A DNA stretch of 64,000 bases from Alphaproteobacteria bacterium (GCA_963422665.1 OY730441.1:715411-779410); one strand, 5' to 3'. Positions 32,263-37,172 are shown, numbered from the stretch's first letter. The notes: generated by a model from the sequence alone, not told the origin. Translations and numbers: made by a program.

Positions 32263-33060
32263 ATGGACACGGCTTCCCCGCCCCCCGCCATCGACCATGT
32301 GGATGTCAACGGTAAGCCCTGCCGCGTCTGGCGCAAGGGGACCGGCCGCCCGCTCGCCTTCCTGGCCGGCCATGGCGGCCTGCCCAAATGGCCCGCCGTC
32401 CTCGACCGGCTGGCGGAAAGCCACGAAGTCGTTGCGCCTTCCGTTCCTGGCTATCCGGGTGGCCTCGGGCATACCAGGCTCGACAGCCAACTGGACTGGG
32501 TGCTGGCCGTCCGCGACCTGTTGAACGGCTGCGGCCTCGAGGGCGGCGACACCCTGCTGGCCGGCTCCGGGCCCGGCGCCTCCTTCGCGCTGGAAATCGC
32601 TGCGCTTTGGCCGCACAAGGTGGACAGGCTGGCGTTGATCGCACCCTGGGGCCTCTTCGACGAAGCGGAGCCGATGACCGACCCCTGGGCCCAGCGTTTG
32701 CCGGAATTACCGGGGATGCTCTGCGCCGACCCGGAGAACTGGAACGCGCTCAAGGCGCCGCCCGAAAGCGCGAATTCCATCGAATGGCCGATCGAGCAGA
32801 CCCGCGCGCTGGAGGCTTCTGCGCGGGCCTTTTGGCCGCTCGGCAATAGCGGGCTGGAGAAGCGCCTCGGCCGCGTGCGCGCGCCGACGCTGCTGCTCTG
32901 GGGCGCGGAAGACCGCATCCTGCCGCGCTCCTACGGCGAGCGCATTGCGGCGGAGCTCGGCGGGCCGGCACGGCTGGAGGTCATCGACGGCGCCGGCCAC
33001 CTCGCCGAGCTCGACAAGCCCATAGAGGTGGCGCAGGCCGTCAAAGCCTTCTTCGCCTGA
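32263..33060 (+). CDS. alpha/beta hydrolase
   Basis: It has a GSGPGASFALE nucleophile elbow and a C-terminal His (GAGHLAELDKP). Confidence 0.7.
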   Translation: MDTASPPPAIDHVDVNGKPCRVWRKGTGRPLAFLAGHGGLPKWPAVLDRLAESHEVVAPSVPGYPGGLGHTRLDSQLDWVLAVRDLLNGCGLEGGDTLLAGSGPGASFALEIAALWPHKVDRLALIAPWGLFDEAEPMTDPWAQRLPELPGMLCADPENWNALKAPPESANSIEWPIEQTRALEASARAFWPLGNSGLEKRLGRVRAPTLLLWGAEDRILPRSYGERIAAELGGPARLEVIDGAGHLAELDKPIEVAQAVKAFFA

Positions 33061-33095
33061 TGTCCTTCATTTATGGTGGCAAAGGGTGACAGGGA

Positions 33096-33836
33096 ATGAC
33101 GGATAACGATACCGCAGAGACCGTTTCGGAAGTATTTGCGAACGTACCGACGCGTCGACGTCGTGGGCGTCCCCGTAAGGACTCCCGCAATATCGCCGCG
33201 AAGCCACCCGTGGGGTTTCCCGAGTTTCCGAACAAAGCGTTCGACATTATCTATGCCGACCCACCATGGGACTATAAAGGCCAACTTCAACATGCGGGAT
33301 CAGGAAGCGGTGATTCCGGGGGCGCCATTCGCCACTACTCCACAGTTACTCTGGACGACCTCAAGCAGCTTCCTGTCTGGAGCATCGCAGCAAAAGATTG
33401 CCTGCTCTTCATGTGGGCGACCAACCCGCATCTAGACCAGACCATCGACCTCGGAAAGGCGTGGGGCTTCGCTTGGGCCACAGTCGCCTTTGTATGGGAC
33501 AAACAAAAAGTCAACCCCGGCTTCTACACCCTCAGCCAGTGCGAGCTTTGCCTAGTGTTCAAGAGGGGAAAGATACCGAGGCCGAGAGGAGCCAGAAATA
33601 TTCGGCAACTCGTGAGCGCTAAGCGCGGACAGCACTCCGAAAAGCCATTCCAGGTTCGCGAGCGTATCGAGGAAATGTTTCCCTCTCAGTCGAAGATAGA
33701 ACTGTTTTCTCGTGAAGAGATAGACGGCTGGACAGCATGGGGGTTGGAAGCATATGGCTTGCGAACATTTAGAAAACAGAGAGAATTGGCAATTGAAGGC
33801 TTCGCGTCGTGCGGGGAGGGCAAAACATCATCTTGA
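33096..33836 (+). CDS. MT-A70 family DNA N6-adenine methyltransferase (orphan)
   Basis: It has the IIYADPPWDYK catalytic motif. Local GC is clearly lower (about 50%) than the window average. Confidence 0.8.
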   Translation: MTDNDTAETVSEVFANVPTRRRRGRPRKDSRNIAAKPPVGFPEFPNKAFDIIYADPPWDYKGQLQHAGSGSGDSGGAIRHYSTVTLDDLKQLPVWSIAAKDCLLFMWATNPHLDQTIDLGKAWGFAWATVAFVWDKQKVNPGFYTLSQCELCLVFKRGKIPRPRGARNIRQLVSAKRGQHSEKPFQVRERIEEMFPSQSKIELFSREEIDGWTAWGLEAYGLRTFRKQRELAIEGFASCGEGKTSS

Positions 33837-33843
33837 TGTTATT

Positions 33844-34283
33844 ATGCGGGAATACCTCCGAGAGTCACAGTATACTCCACAAAACAAGCCAAACGACTTG
33901 TCTGGAATATATGGTTTCCTCCCCGATACTGGACTCTCTTACGGCATGCGCCCGGATTATTCAATCAGAAGTCAAGTAACAGACAAGGGTGTATATGTTG
34001 AGATAACGAGGCAAAGAGCAGCGGGAAATGCTCACAAGCGAGCGTACAAATTCATGATGCCTGGTATTAACGATCAGCGCAGCAGATAGCGAAGCAATCA
34101 AGTGATATCATTCCATTCTGGTGGATATTTTCCAACGGCATCGCGTCAAATCGGCGTTATATTCAGGAAATCCGCCACTGGTTCCTTGGCATTGAAGGAC
34201 ATGTTCTTCTGTGGGAGGATATAGAAGATTATACGGCCGTGGTCGATCATTTCGATGAACACATCAGACCCTTACTCGATTGA
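33844..34283 (+). pseudogene. hypothetical protein in the low-GC islet, apparently split by a frameshift near 34090
   Basis: The ORF MREYLRESQYTPQNK...PGINDQRSR* is followed in another frame by an ATG-less open frame (SAQQIAKQSSDIIPFWWIFSNG...HFDEHIRPLLD*). GC is about 45%. No recognisable domain. Confidence 0.25.
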
Positions 34284-34376
34284 CCAGTTAATTCCTGAGG
34301 TCGCGCGATATTATAGTGTGGACCGTTGCCATCGACGGCTACCGGCTCACCAAGCTTAGTACAGAAGGAACCGCTG

Positions 34377-34844
34377 ATGAGCAAAGCAGGCTTCACGGTC
34401 CGGGCGCTCGGCGAGGTCGTGCTGCGGACAGGCCGGCTGGACAAGATGAGGGCGTTCTACCGGGACATGATCGGCCTTGGGGTCATGCGCATCTTCGAGG
34501 ACGGCATGACCTTCTTCCGCCTGGCGCCCGGTTTCGAGGGCCACACGGCCGTGCTGGCGCTGTTCCCGCTCGACCGGGGCGAGGGCTGGAACGGTCACGA
34601 CCGGCCACGCTCCACACTGCATCATTTCGCGCTCGGTATCCCCCATACCGAGCGCCCGGCTGCGCTGGCCGCGCTCGCCGCCCGGGGCCTCGAACCCTGG
34701 ACCGCCTACCACGAATGGGTCGGCTGGCACTCCATCTATGTCCGCGACCCGGACGGCAACACCGTAGAACTCGTCAGCGCCCCGGAGCCGGGATGGGTGG
34801 GACAGGAACCGGAAGCCGATAGCCCCGCGACCGCAATCAGTTGA
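34377..34844 (+). CDS. VOC (glyoxalase/bleomycin-resistance/dioxygenase) family protein
   Basis: 155 aa (MSKAGFTVRALGEVVL...HHFALGI...SIYVRDPDGNTVEL). Confidence 0.7.
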   Translation: MSKAGFTVRALGEVVLRTGRLDKMRAFYRDMIGLGVMRIFEDGMTFFRLAPGFEGHTAVLALFPLDRGEGWNGHDRPRSTLHHFALGIPHTERPAALAALAARGLEPWTAYHEWVGWHSIYVRDPDGNTVELVSAPEPGWVGQEPEADSPATAIS

Positions 34845-34963
34845 GCCTTCGGTTTCCGGGCAAAGCTTTCCGCGACAGGCCGGCCCGCCTACTGTGATTC
34901 GAATTCCAGGCCGCGGACCCTCGCGGCGGACCGAAGCGGCTTCTTCGACAAGTCGGCGCGCAA

Positions 34964-36676
34964 ATGGCTACGAATTTCAACACAAGCAACAGCACTTGGC
35001 GCCAATTGATGGGAAACGGCCTGCTTTACCGGGTGCCACCGTTCCAGCGCGACTATAGCTGGGGCGAGGAGGAATGGGACGACCTCTGGCACGATATTCA
35101 CGAGGTCATGCGCCCCGACGGGGAGCCGGCGCATTATATGGGCTATCTCGTCCTGCAGTCCGAGGACGGCAAGCGGTTCGACATCATTGGCGGGCAACAA
35201 CGCCTGACGACGCTCAGCATTCTCGTGCTGGCCGCCTTGCGTCAATTGCATCTCCTGCTGGACAAGGAGCAGGATACCGAAAACACCCGCATGAGGCTTG
35301 AGAGTCTGCGGCAAGGCTATATCGGCTACCTCGACCCGGTGACTCTGGTCTCCCATCCCAAGCTGAGGTTGAACCGGAACAATGACGATTATTTCCAGAC
35401 ATATCTGGTTCCTCTGGCGTCGCCCTTGCCGAGGCGGGGATTCAGAAGGTCGGAACACGACATGCGCAAGGCGTTCGAGTGGTTCGACCGCCATTTTCGG
35501 GAATATCTGGAGGCGGAAGCCGACCCCGGTTTGGCGGTCGTGCGACTGATCGACGGGATGAGCGACAAACTGCTCTTTACCGTCATTACAGTCACCGACG
35601 AACTGAACGCCTACCGGGTGTTCGAAACGCTGAATGCGCGGGGAGTACGGCTTTCGGCGACGGACCTCCTGAAAAACTACCTGTTCTCGCTTCTGCATCG
35701 CCAGGGCGAGCATGAACGCGAGATCGAAACGCTGGAAGGCCGCTGGAACGGAATCGTAGGAAGGCTCGGGGAGGAGAGCTTTCCCGATTTCCTGCGCGTC
35801 CACTGGATTAGCCGGAGAACGACCGTCCGGTTATCGGACCTTTTCAAGACTGTCCGCGCCCAGGTTCGGGACAGAAAAGATGCATTTTCACTCCTGCAGG
35901 AGCTCGAAGCCGATATCGATGCTTATCTGAATCTGACGCAGCCGGACGGCTCCAACTGGCCTGCCAATTGGAAGCGCCATGCCCGAACACTTCGCATGTT
36001 CAGCGTCCGTCAGCCGTTCCCCTTGCTGCTTGCAGCCCGGCGGGTTCTGGACGGTGGCGACTTCGAGAGGCTGCTACGCTGCGTAGTGGTTATGTCCTTT
36101 CGCTATAATGTCATCGGCGGCCTTCATGGAAACGAGCAGGAGCGGATTTACCATGCAGAGGCCCAAAGGATTTCGAGGGGCGATCATTCCTCGATCCGGG
36201 AGATCATGGCCGGCTTGCGGCCGATTTATCCCGACGACGAACGGTTCCGGCTGAGTTTCGGTGAAAAATCCATCGGTGTTGCGCAGACGCGAAACAAGCG
36301 GGTCGTCCGCTACATTCTGTTCGAATTGGAGCGGCAGGCCTCCGGCAACAGCCTCGACTTCGAGGACAGCCGGATAACCCTGGAACATGTCTGCCCGCTG
36401 AATCTGGAAGACGGCTGGGACCGGTTTGGCGAAGGAGACATGAACGCGCAAACATCGCGCCTCGGCAATGTGGCGTTGCTGGAAGCGGGCCCAAACCGAG
36501 ATGCCGGCAATGCCGGTTACGAGGCGAAGCGGGCGCTGTTCGCGAACAGCCGTTTCCAGACGACCCGGGACATCGCGAGCAAATACACGGAGTGGACGCC
36601 GGAAACGATCGAGTCGCGCCAGAAGGCCATGGCAAGAAGCGCAGCAGCGGTATGGCGTATCGACTTTCCCCGCTGA
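34964..36676 (+). CDS. DUF262 (ParB-like NTPase) + DUF1524 (His-Me/HNH-like) protein, GmrSD-family Type IV restriction / anti-phage nuclease
   Basis: 570 aa. The N-terminal region has RVPPFQRDYSWGEEEWDDLWHDI and the DGQQR-type motif IIGGQQRLTTL. The C-terminal region has ITLEHVCPLN. GC is about 56%, below the window average. Confidence 0.82.
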   Translation: MATNFNTSNSTWRQLMGNGLLYRVPPFQRDYSWGEEEWDDLWHDIHEVMRPDGEPAHYMGYLVLQSEDGKRFDIIGGQQRLTTLSILVLAALRQLHLLLDKEQDTENTRMRLESLRQGYIGYLDPVTLVSHPKLRLNRNNDDYFQTYLVPLASPLPRRGFRRSEHDMRKAFEWFDRHFREYLEAEADPGLAVVRLIDGMSDKLLFTVITVTDELNAYRVFETLNARGVRLSATDLLKNYLFSLLHRQGEHEREIETLEGRWNGIVGRLGEESFPDFLRVHWISRRTTVRLSDLFKTVRAQVRDRKDAFSLLQELEADIDAYLNLTQPDGSNWPANWKRHARTLRMFSVRQPFPLLLAARRVLDGGDFERLLRCVVVMSFRYNVIGGLHGNEQERIYHAEAQRISRGDHSSIREIMAGLRPIYPDDERFRLSFGEKSIGVAQTRNKRVVRYILFELERQASGNSLDFEDSRITLEHVCPLNLEDGWDRFGEGDMNAQTSRLGNVALLEAGPNRDAGNAGYEAKRALFANSRFQTTRDIASKYTEWTPETIESRQKAMARSAAAVWRIDFPR

Positions 36677-36725
36677 AACCGGGCCGCTGCGGTAGTCCTG
36701 CCAGTTTGACCGGAATCTGCGGGCG

Positions 36726-37172
36726 ATGACCGACGCAAAGAACGATAGCCCCTCCAGCGGGAGCCCGCCGCCCGCTGCACACCTGCACCATGTGCATCTG
36801 TTCGCCGCCGACATCGACGCGGCCGTTGCGTGGTGGCGGGAGACGCTCGGGGGTGTCGTCGCGTTCGACGGCAGGTTCGGCGGCGCGCGCAATGTCTTCA
36901 TGGAGGTGGGGCGCGGTCGTCTCCACCTCTACGACCAGCCGCCGCGCGGTGCGCCGGGCGGGGCCGTGCATCATGTCGGGATACAGACCGGCGACCTTCC
37001 CGCACTCCACTGCCGGTTGACGGCGCTCGGCGTGCCGTTCCGCTCCGGCATCCGCGAGTTCGGGTCGTGGCGGTATATCATGTGCGAAGCTCCGGACGGC
37101 GTGCTGCTGGAGCTCTTCCAGATCGACACGGACCGTATGCCCCCCGCCCTCGCCCGCTATTTCGCCCTCTGA
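36726..37172 (+). CDS. VOC family protein
   Basis: 148 aa (HLHHVHLFAADIDAAVAWWRETLGG...). Confidence 0.7.
   Translation: MTDAKNDSPSSGSPPPAAHLHHVHLFAADIDAAVAWWRETLGGVVAFDGRFGGARNVFMEVGRGRLHLYDQPPRGAPGGAVHHVGIQTGDLPALHCRLTALGVPFRSGIREFGSWRYIMCEAPDGVLLELFQIDTDRMPPALARYFAL

Follow-up and report, generated by a model that had tools for sequence, protein, structure and literature searches.

Two defence insertions in neighbouring slots of an alphaproteobacterial locus: a putative decayed MunI-family restriction-modification cassette and an apparently older HEC-06-type GmrSD-like gene

Gene order and base composition of the locus

Within the 64-kb stretch of DNA that was analysed (the window), a patch of reduced GC content lies in a row of metabolic genes that includes a TRAP transporter, a luciferase-like monooxygenase, an alpha/beta-hydrolase, an acyl-CoA dehydrogenase and an enoyl-CoA hydratase. 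The patch contains an MT-A70 methyltransferase gene (33096..33836) and a GmrSD-like gene with DUF262 and DUF1524 domains (34964..36676), both located where an earlier note on this DNA had placed them and both, as that note proposed, belonging to defence families (PADLOC MTase_II, 3e-59, and HEC-06, 1.4e-220, respectively). The GmrSD-like gene is flanked by two genes matching the glyoxalase/VOC family (PF00903), VOC1 (34377..34844) and VOC2 (36726..37172; E 3e-13), and all of these genes lie on the plus strand. We read the gene row as hydrolase, slot A, VOC1, slot B and VOC2, in which, very probably, two unrelated defence insertions occupy neighbouring slots.

Plotting GC content in 1-kb bins (n=64) gave a mean of 0.678 for the window; the three lowest bins lie at 33001-34000 (0.532), 34001-35000 (0.595) and 35001-36000 (0.583), with all remaining bins at 0.607 or above. 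By gene, the MT-A70 ORF has a GC content of 0.545 (GC3 0.60), the stretch that follows it (33837-34283) 0.454 and the GmrSD ORF 0.588 (GC3 0.73), compared with 0.682 for VOC1 (GC3 0.83) and 0.691 for VOC2. Both defence genes are compositionally foreign, with GC below background, as had been noted earlier, and the VOC genes are at native GC; the previous estimate of about 56% for the GmrSD gene is close to the measured value, and that of 45-50% across 33096..34330 holds for the 3′ half of the patch and is slightly too low for the methylase gene.

The foreign segment in slot A spans 33061..34340 on the plus strand (GC 0.51 against a background of 0.68). In alignments, homology to related loci ends straight after the TGA of the alpha/beta-hydrolase gene, and the 3′ edge stops some 20-40 bp short of where VOC1 begins, with homology returning at about 34362, just before the VOC1 ATG. 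VOC1 is a native gene, 83-87% identical to its orthologs in relatives, that separates the two insertions and is part of neither. VOC2 is native too, and junction alignments show that in relatives without the GmrSD-like gene its ATG overlaps the VOC1 stop codon (ATGA). The VOC1 stop codon is mutated in the window (ATGA to ATGG), resulting in a 17-aa extension. As the earlier note had it, neither an integrase nor a tRNA was found at the borders of the region; the lack of any tRNA in the 64-kb window, the metabolic neighbours and the lack of bracketing terminal repeats all speak against an integrase- or tRNA-bounded genomic island. The only repeat found was a small part of the VOC2 5′ end, which is duplicated on either side of the GmrSD-like gene.

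A long-form methylase and a MunI-family endonuclease pseudogene

The methylase gene of the window encodes an intact, long-form MT-A70 DNA methyltransferase of 246 aa, M.MunI-like and of predicted N6-adenine specificity. Its match to PF05063 (E 6e-20) covers the full profile, with the DPPW motif at residues 55-58 (nt 33258-33269), and the protein departs from its family at 3 of 111 conserved columns, conservatively in all three; omega, measured against the L082 allele, is 0.10. The N-terminal extension carries a basic motif, RRRRGRPRK (residues 20-28; 33153..33179, plus strand), which may function in the manner of an AT-hook. Among the 120 closest homologs, RRRRGRP is confined to five (those of the window, L082, L083, L085 and P0004), and every short-form allele resident in related loci lacks it.

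Downstream of the methylase, the roughly 500 bp of fragmentary small ORFs described in the earlier note are real and more than noise: together they make up a single endonuclease pseudogene, broken in two. The 5′ piece (33754..34089, plus strand, frame 1, 111 codons) matches PF11407 (RestrictionMunI, E 3e-7) and PADLOC REase_II (1e-5), and is 65% identical to the intact endonuclease of L083, a locus in which an intact homologous methylase-endonuclease pair adjoins an IS1595 transposase. The 3′ piece (34071..34283, plus strand, frame 0, with the stop codon TGA at 34281-34283) shares 72% identity across 58 aa with the C-terminal end of the L083 endonuclease and aligns with the C-terminal half of MunI. 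Rejoined, the two pieces match R.MunI (PDB 1d02) over its full length (E 3e-16, residues 4-176). The 5′ piece starts 83 nt inside the 3′ end of the methylase gene, and the intact L083 pair overlaps in the same way. Since these supposed fragments are a MunI-family endonuclease pseudogene, the methylase appears to be the survivor of a MunI-like Type II restriction-modification cassette, solitary only in function, and the earlier description of it as an orphan does not hold: its cognate R gene adjoins it downstream.

Three-frame translation of the window against L083 places a 1-nt deletion at about 34069..34071 on the plus strand (window 'att aa|cga tca gcg', L083 'att gtt cgc tcg gcg'), outside any homopolymer, and the pieces are split between two frames in the same way in L001, a Logan contig assembled independently. 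In the PD...E-x-K active site, the remnant has P67-D68 together with E83-I84-T85, and alignment to 1d02 sets this E-I-T opposite E98-I-K100, with the codon ACG (Thr85; 34006..34008, plus strand) at the position of the catalytic Lys, MunI K100. A Lys is found at this position in 100% of 79 intact homologs (K85T in the window), and two further invariant residues are also altered (E24K and E95K). Overall, across 51 columns with conservation of 90% or more, the remnant carries 7 changes, 3 of them in columns that are 100% invariant, whereas the 79 intact homologs have a mean of 1.15 such changes and a maximum of 6. The endonuclease thus appears to be a decayed MunI-family member in which both the reading frame and the PD...(D/E)XK active site are broken.

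If the restriction-modification system still worked, with the frameshift either an assembly error or bypassed, the methylase would be guarding the cell against its own active endonuclease. This reading fits the presence of only one frameshift between pieces that are otherwise well preserved (65-72% identity to an intact homolog), and metagenome-assembled genomes can contain indel errors; the frameshift, like the D76G substitution described below, is a single-nucleotide feature of such a genome, and either could still be a sequencing or assembly error, because L001 possibly comes from the same reads. Against it stand the position of the frameshift outside a homopolymer, the same sequence in L001, and a number of conserved-column changes above that of any intact homolog, and K85T, E24K and E95K argue for decay independently of the frameshift. 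We consider a functional endonuclease very unlikely.

M.MunI is a circularly permuted N6-adenine methylase, and the MunI site is CAATTG. The window cassette resembles the MunI system in the full-length homology of its endonuclease remnant, in which PD, E and the recognition-loop motif GNAH(K/E)R all align, and in its PF05063 MT-A70 methylase with DPPW; the MT-A70 (Ime4-like) clade has been placed with circularly permuted prokaryotic methylases of the M.MunI/M.MboII type (Iyer et al., PMC4738411). It differs in its shorter endonuclease (about 176 codons, frameshifted and with Thr at the catalytic Lys, against 202 aa in MunI), in having no C (controller) gene, in the AT-hook-like extension of the methylase and in the 83-nt overlap of the M and R genes. 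The equivalent of MunI R115 is Ala both in the window and in the intact L083 homolog, and therefore the outer base pair of the recognition site may differ from that in CAATTG. Judged from MunI and EcoRI as analogues, the methylase probably acts on a site built around AATT; NAATTN is not depleted in the 64-kb window (CAATTG, 12 observed versus 9.1 expected), a length too short to be informative.

The incoming cassette would have comprised a long-form M.MunI-like methylase and a MunI-like PD-(D/E)XK endonuclease gene of about 176 codons starting 83 nt before the end of the M gene, and the endonuclease would have been inactivated later through the 1-nt deletion, K85T, E24K and E95K. With the methylase intact and the endonuclease dead, the cell would only methylate its target, restriction having been lost. 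The GC3 of the methylase gene (0.60) is higher than that of the endonuclease remnant (0.45-0.49), and the gene is also above the L083 copy (GC 0.45), which could reflect partial amelioration and a not very recent event, or else a different donor.

Slot A in related genomes

At 14 related loci, 10 of them in genomes of GTDB species and 4 on contigs from metagenomes, slot A holds a short, high-GC MT-A70 gene (GC3 0.70-0.88) without an endonuclease gene; this resident short-form methylase of about 190 aa is syntenic and solitary, and its omega of 0.12-0.16 indicates purifying selection. Resident alleles are 86-98% identical among themselves and 77-84% identical to the window allele. Between resident methylases dS is 0.50-0.53, and for the flanking hydrolase 0.31-0.59, as against 1.8-3.9 between the window and resident methylases. 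In a neighbour-joining tree of methylases picked for their similarity to the window protein, the resident alleles make up a clade of their own and the window allele clusters with L082, L083 and P0005, the long-form and resident clades being sisters within this sample.

The resident gene, being solitary, syntenic and under purifying selection, is like the conserved solitary methyltransferases that occur beside patchy restriction-modification genes, for example in Halobacteria (PMC6471742). The window allele differs from these as a probable xenologous replacement that came with an endonuclease, and the dS of 1.8-3.9, set against 0.4-0.6 for a flanking gene, and the separate clade speak against its descent as a vertically conserved solitary methylase.

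The low-GC long-form allele of the window is thus best explained as a xenolog that displaced the resident short-form methylase, and L082 and L085 appear to be two further, independent replacements. L085 seems still to keep a trace of the resident gene: downstream of its low-GC long-form methylase lies what is left of the 3′ end of the resident methylase, 56 aa long and 64% GC (E 3e-23; 86% nucleotide identity to L006). In a tree of flanking genes, the three long-form loci came together in 0 of 100 bootstraps, and each grouped with short-form loci at 97-98 of 100.

Alternatively, the low-GC cassette could be the ancestral occupant of the slot and the short, high-GC methylases of the relatives its ameliorated vertical descendants, with no replacement at all. 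The sister relationship of the two clades among the sampled homologs is consistent with such a history, and the resident alleles could plausibly stem from an older capture of the same restriction-modification family. However, the window lineage is nested within short-form species (97 of 100 bootstraps), its methylase would have had equal time for amelioration yet has a GC3 of 0.60 versus 0.78-0.88 in most relatives, the window-resident dS is 3-8 times the species-level dS, and L085 has the long-form gene and the resident remnant side by side, so that an ancestral cassette is highly improbable.

According to the replacement model, the usual occupant of slot A in this alphaproteobacterial clade is a short, GC-ameliorated, vertically inherited solitary MT-A70 adenine methyltransferase, which in the window lineage would have been swapped for a foreign, lower-GC MunI-family Type II cassette. 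The window methylase gene shows neither mosaic blocks nor clear recombination junctions, and the replacement could therefore have come about through homologous exchange inside the clade or through illegitimate recombination facilitated by homology. Conserved synteny across the genus, which the earlier note would have taken as evidence against recent acquisition, was found for the GmrSD-like gene and for the methylase slot; the low-GC restriction-modification allele alone is lineage-specific.

The GmrSD-like gene of slot B and its relation to the methylase

The single-protein GmrSD-like nuclease of slot B (570 aa) contains PF03235 (GmrSD_N, E 1e-35, residues 18-241) and PF07510 (GmrSD_C, E 1.5e-23, residues 422-558), and its match to the PADLOC HEC-06 model (PDLC04154) runs from residue 3 to 567 of 570 against model positions 4-567 of 569. 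The best match to a solved structure is 9jfl_B, an unnamed DUF262 protein (E 7e-24). With GmrSD, BrxU and SspE it shares both Pfam domains and the logic of a ParB-like NTPase joined to an HNH nuclease (Machnicka et al., PMC4619093; Picton et al., PMC8565348), but similarity to this group is only distant, with weaker and partial PADLOC matches to mREase_IV (2e-15) and SspE (1e-18).

HEC-06 (Hma-embedded candidate 06) is a validated single-gene anti-phage defence in E. coli that requires Q79, R80, E471 and H472 (Payne et al. 2024, bioRxiv 10.1101/2024.01.29.577857). The window protein has the same DUF262-linker-DUF1524 architecture along the full length of the model, with Q79 and R80 identically numbered and the E-H of EH(I/V)CP at E474 and H475. 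In the window this HNH motif reads L-E474-H475-V-C-P (E-H at nt 36383-36388), and the E-H pair is invariant in 6 of 6 orthologs and 120 of 120 homologs. In contrast to HEC-06, the window gene lies outside any Hma system, between two VOC genes in a metabolic row, and it has Gly for the near-invariant Asp of the DGQQR motif, which is conserved in nearly 100% of the family (Machnicka et al., PMC4619093). DGQQR is kept in 5 of 5 aligned orthologs; among the 120 closest database homologs it is kept in 118, one of them 97% identical, and GGQQR (residues 76-80; Gly76 codon at 35189..35191, plus strand) occurs in none. This private D76G substitution, which leaves Q78-Q79-R80 in place, may weaken the enzyme.

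Orthologs of the gene occupy the same slot in L002, L004, L010, L011, L016, L086 and L087 (82-91% identity, dS 0.44-0.63, in line with the flanking gene, omega 0.11-0.17, GC 0.59-0.62), the gene being found at 8 of 14 informative loci. These values point to vertical inheritance under purifying selection and to an insertion older than the restriction-modification cassette. The gene would have entered slot B before the sampled species split, breaking a translationally coupled VOC1-VOC2 pair, and would then have descended vertically, with loss in some species. To judge from its analogues HEC-06, BrxU and GmrSD, the enzyme, with its ParB-like NTPase and HNH nuclease domains in one protein, would on its own be an NTP-dependent nuclease that attacks invading phage DNA, probably of a modified kind; candidate substrates for the HEC-06 branch are glc-hmC, other modified bases and unmodified DNA.

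The earlier note had joined the two genes into one compact, recently acquired islet, in which the methylase is paired with a modification-dependent nuclease. The genes are 1.1 kb apart, both are below background GC, both match defence HMMs, and HEC-06 was first found inside Hma systems, which include a methylase. Yet native-GC VOC1 stands between the two slots, and the genes therefore do not form a single operon of adjacent, co-oriented members. Their histories differ as well, in dS to relatives (1.8-3.9 for the methylase versus 0.44-0.63 for the GmrSD-like gene) and in GC3 (0.60 and 0.45 for the cassette versus 0.73). Nor do they occur as a pair: a methylase fills its slot at every related locus, including the 6 of 14 informative loci from which the GmrSD-like gene is missing, and in 7 loci the latter is found with short-form alleles. 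We found no link between modification and nuclease; HEC-06 on its own protects E. coli, and an m6A-dependent nuclease beside a host m6A methylase would presumably be self-toxic. Synteny and dS largely refute such a coupled unit, which we regard as scarcely credible.

Equally hard to credit is a new methylation-sensing pair in which the GmrSD-like protein reads the neighbouring MT-A70 mark as 'self', as SspE does with phosphorothioate: the methylase slot is filled in every relative with the GmrSD slot adjoining, and SspE, a GmrSD-family member, is reported to sense host modification, but the intervening VOC1 gene, the 6 loci with a methylase alone, the equal conservation of the GmrSD-like gene beside two very different methylase alleles, and the activity of HEC-06 in E. 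coli without a cognate methylase all speak against it.

The low-GC patch is instead two separate, ordinary anti-phage insertions, both of known kinds, namely a MunI-family restriction-modification remnant and a HEC-06-type GmrSD. We hold with good confidence to the account as a whole, in which a MunI-type cassette replaced the resident gene of slot A and decayed, next to an older HEC-06-type GmrSD in slot B.

More tentatively, and with less than even odds, incoming homologous MunI-type cassettes could have landed time and again on the clade-wide resident MT-A70, which may even have served as a 'vaccine' against them; in at least three lineages (window, L082 and L085) foreign long-form alleles would have replaced it in situ and independently. 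A related methylase already present in the host may have neutralised the arriving endonuclease and so left it at liberty to decay, in which case the locus would preserve a natural history of selfish restriction-modification elements repeatedly captured and disarmed at one site.

Composition of the region and a decayed restriction endonuclease

The drop in GC reported in the earlier note proved real and is the strongest of the window: with a window mean of 0.678, the 1-kb bins at 33-34 kb (0.532), 34-35 kb (0.595) and 35-36 kb (0.583) are the three lowest of 64. The MT-A70 ORF (33096-33836) has a GC of 0.545 and a GC3 of 0.60, the stretch 3' of it (33837-34283) 0.454 and 0.45-0.49, and the DUF262/DUF1524 ORF, here GmrSD (34964-36676), 0.588 and 0.73, with values of 0.68 and 0.83 for the glyoxalase/VOC-family gene VOC1 (34377-34844) and 0.69 and 0.85 for VOC2 (36726-37172). 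Pfam matched MT-A70, GmrSD_N plus GmrSD_C, and Glyoxalase/VOC for both VOC genes, and the genes around the low-GC patch are metabolic. The absence of a tRNA border also held, with no tRNA in the 64-kb window; a scan of 32.8-37.3 kb found no terminal direct or inverted repeats above chance, except a short duplication of the VOC2 5' end around GmrSD, and no promoter or terminator above chance.

The sequence downstream of the methylase, previously described as fragmentary small ORFs, consists of two frames of one MunI-type restriction endonuclease (REase) pseudogene. Its 5' piece (33754-34089) is a 111-codon ORF overlapping the methylase gene by 83 nt, with hits to the RestrictionMunI model of Pfam (E 3e-7) and to REase_II of PADLOC, and the homology carries on at 34071-34283 in a different, stop-free frame. 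The compared contig L083 carries an intact 176-codon homolog downstream of a related long-form methylase, with a methylase/REase overlap identical to that of the window, and comparison of the two shows a 1-nt deletion at ~34069-34071, where the window reads "att aa" followed directly by "cga tca gcg" and L083 reads "att gtt cgc tcg gcg". When rejoined, the window REase aligns over its full length with R.MunI (PDB 1d02, E 3e-16); P67-D68 and E83 line up with the MunI active site, and Thr85 (codon ACG, 34006-34008) occupies the position of the catalytic K100. At columns at least 90% conserved among 79 intact homologs, it deviates at 7 of 51, including E24K, K85T and E95K at 100% invariant columns, as compared with a mean of 1.15 and a maximum of 6 deviations per intact homolog. 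The same two-frame arrangement is present in an independently assembled Logan contig with the same locus (L001, from run ERR11641160), and no second, intact MunI-like REase was found across the window. Counts of CAATTG, GAATTC, AAATTT and TAATTA were close to the Markov-1 expectation in the window; a stretch of only 64 kb makes such counts uninformative.

The methylase itself is intact: it retains DPPW, departs from 111 conserved columns at three, each time conservatively, and has an omega of ~0.1. Its MT-A70 clade has been grouped with the circularly permuted M.MunI/M.MboII methylases by Iyer et al. (PMC4738411). Since an intact methylase adjoins a decayed MunI-like REase, we conclude that this supposed orphan, whose cognate REase is recognisable next door as a pseudogene, is the half that survives from a MunI-type Type II restriction-modification (R-M) cassette. 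By membership tests, the cassette is a decayed member of that type, and the window allele falls outside the "conserved orphan" methylase class, unlike the alleles of its neighbours, which belong to it.

Two sequence features of the cassette were also recorded. The element GAATTGGCAATTG (window 33782-33795; L083 ~5675-5690), conserved in the intact L083 cassette, places GAATTG beside a CAATTG MunI site in the methylase/REase overlap, where the REase gene begins. It might be a regulatory site methylated by the cassette itself, or just the codons of a conserved ENWQL peptide. An AT-hook-like RRRRGRPRK motif lies in the N-terminal extension of the long-form methylase (33153-33179, residues 20-28); extensions with RRRRGRP occur in 5 of the 120 nearest homologs, all long-form, and are missing from every resident short-form allele. 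Judging from its sequence, the motif may serve in binding AT-rich DNA or in cassette regulation, and methylases that become solitary appear to lose it.

The methylase slot across relatives

Scanning species-representative genomes with the upstream monooxygenase yielded 10 relatives at species level (protein identity 93-96%), with contigs reaching beyond the hydrolase gene into the methylase slot. An MT-A70 gene lies between the hydrolase gene and VOC1, without a REase, in all 10, and this arrangement recurs in four further relatives, taken from JGI metagenomes. These resident genes are of a short form (~190 aa; the window protein has 246 aa) with native-like composition (GC 0.60-0.68, GC3 0.70-0.88), and their stop overlaps the VOC1 start. 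Resident alleles share 86-98% identity among themselves and 77-84% with the window allele; similarly, dS is 0.50-0.53 between resident methylases and 0.31-0.59 for the adjacent hydrolase, compared to 1.8-3.9 between window and resident methylases. In a neighbour-joining tree, the resident alleles form a single clade and the window allele groups with the other long forms among the contigs and proteins compared (L082, P0005, L083 and P0007). A tree of the flanking genes placed the three long-form loci together in 0 of 100 bootstraps, each being nested instead among short-form loci (97-98 of 100).

In a further relative, L085, the slot (2885-4127) contains a different low-GC long-form MT-A70 gene (221 aa) and no MunI-like REase but a small ORF of 106 aa, whose resemblance to the winged helix of Mrr_N (PF14338, E 1.6e-5) falls below threshold. 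Directly after this cassette lies a 56-aa, 64%-GC remnant of the 3' end of the resident methylase (E 3e-23; 86% nucleotide identity to the relative L006), and its position beside a long-form gene provides direct evidence of incoming cassettes overwriting the resident gene. In the window, we found no convincing remnant of this kind beyond ~20 bp before the VOC1 ATG. When the window methylase gene was tested for mosaicism against the foreign L083 allele and the resident consensus, resident-type (60) and foreign-type (46) sites proved interleaved without blocks, and the gene offered no position for a recombination breakpoint.

We therefore conclude that, specifically in the window's lineage, a xenologous cassette replaced the domesticated solitary methylase present throughout the clade, and that its endonuclease then decayed. 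With a GC3 of 0.60, intermediate in value, the methylase points to a replacement that was not very recent. Given the repeated overwriting, it is plausible that the resident methylase serves as a recombination anchor, and perhaps that it pre-protects the host from an incoming endonuclease. Phage and plasmid collections gave only distant MT-A70 homologs (<60% identity), so no donor element was identified, and no NCBIfam model matched the window methylase, GmrSD, the L083 REase or a resident methylase.

Two side observations concern the wider family. The intact methylase-REase pair of L083 (5001-9076, 45% GC) belongs to a small cluster of defence and mobile genes that also encodes a SIR2_2 protein, a DUF3800 protein and an IS1595-family transposase, with a FitA-like antitoxin gene nearby. 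Database-wide, the MT-A70 subfamily is unusually conserved (~70-80% identity) across Chloroflexota, Acidobacteriota, Gemmatimonadota and Alphaproteobacteria, with 4,566 matches (E<=1e-10) versus ~100 for the cognate MunI-like REase (E<=1e-5), in searches of differing sensitivity; this suggests that most copies are solitary.

The GmrSD-like gene and its VOC neighbours

Over its full length, the 570-aa GmrSD protein fits the HEC-06 model of PADLOC (E 1e-220); its closest solved structure is the DUF262 protein 9jfl (E 7e-24). HEC-06 has been validated in E. coli as a single-gene defence against phages, and its activity needs Q79 and R80 of a DGQQR motif and E471 and H472 of an HNH motif (Payne et al., bioRxiv 10.1101/2024.01.29.577857). 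By membership tests, the window protein is a probable HEC-06/GmrSD-like nuclease with one motif anomaly, namely D76G (codon GGC, 35189-35191), giving GGQQR in place of DGQQR. No Gly was seen among 5 orthologs and the 120 nearest homologs, of which all 5 and 118, respectively, retain the Asp, a 97% identical homolog among them; the motif is reported to be nearly 100% conserved in the family, with the Asp modelled near the nucleotide gamma-phosphate (PMC4619093, PMC8565348). The allele may be hypomorphic, or the change may be a sequence or base-call error. An exact-sequence look-up of the protein returned no record, probably owing to a different called start or to the D76G variant.

Orthologs of GmrSD lie between VOC1 and VOC2 in seven compared contigs (L002, L004, L010, L011, L016, L086 and L087); they are 82-91% identical and intact, all with GC 0.59-0.62, and their dS to the window gene (0.44-0.63, omega 0.11-0.17) corresponds to a species-level timescale. 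The gene is absent from six others (L003, L006, L007, L008, L088 and L111). Syntenic orthologs at species-level dS together with this patchy absence indicate that GmrSD has long resided at the locus, passed on vertically and at times lost, and such conserved synteny among relatives, which the earlier note had itself named as counting against recent acquisition, overturns that proposal for this gene.

In the four loci that lack GmrSD and retain VOC1 (L003, L006, L007 and L008), VOC1 ends and VOC2 starts within one ATGA, an arrangement of translational coupling. The window VOC1 stop is mutated (ATGA to ATGG), adding 17 residues (junction region 34790-34844, 36725-36760), and the duplicated VOC2 5' end brackets the GmrSD insertion (34817-34833 and 36743-36759). 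Two junction types, one in the window, L004 and L010 and the other in L002 and L016, are discordant with the flanking-gene tree, which hints at exchange inside the clade. VOC1 is missing in L011, L086, L087 and L111, where the methylase is directly followed by GmrSD or VOC2. Gene content from the hydrolase to VOC2 is thus variable within the clade along three independent lines. The VOC genes were rejected as parts of a defence unit, having native GC and being conserved in relatives without GmrSD.

Unrelated neighbours and R-M turnover

The proposal that methylase and GmrSD form one coupled islet is contradicted by our data: they occupy separate slots with the native VOC1 between them, differ in their compositional and dS histories and vary independently across 14 informative loci, and HEC-06 acts alone. 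A GmrSD that reads the methyl mark as "self", as SspE reads phosphorothioate, finds no support here. A GmrSD dependent on m6A from the host's own methylase would presumably attack the host chromosome. Overall, the observation of a low-GC patch was confirmed and its interpretation partly supported, the orphan status and the pairing with GmrSD having fallen away.

Nothing at the locus is new in kind, as MunI-type Type II R-M systems (here a decayed one), HEC-06/GmrSD-like nucleases and conserved solitary methylases are all known families. The one mildly unusual feature is that homologous R-M cassettes have repeatedly overwritten a domesticated solitary methylase in situ, in three lineages, a pattern that extends known R-M allelic turnover and orphan-methylase conservation (e.g. 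PMC6471742). For annotation, gene callers and defence finders would label the window methylase an "orphan" although it is an R-M cassette survivor, and the Type IV-like nuclease beside it is an unrelated, older resident; synteny should therefore be checked before nearby defence genes are read as one system. The locus provides a small, clean example of R-M turnover, in which a clade-fixed domesticated methylase in a metabolic operon is repeatedly overwritten by endonuclease-bearing mobile homologs, and this turnover bears on the origin and persistence of solitary methylases.
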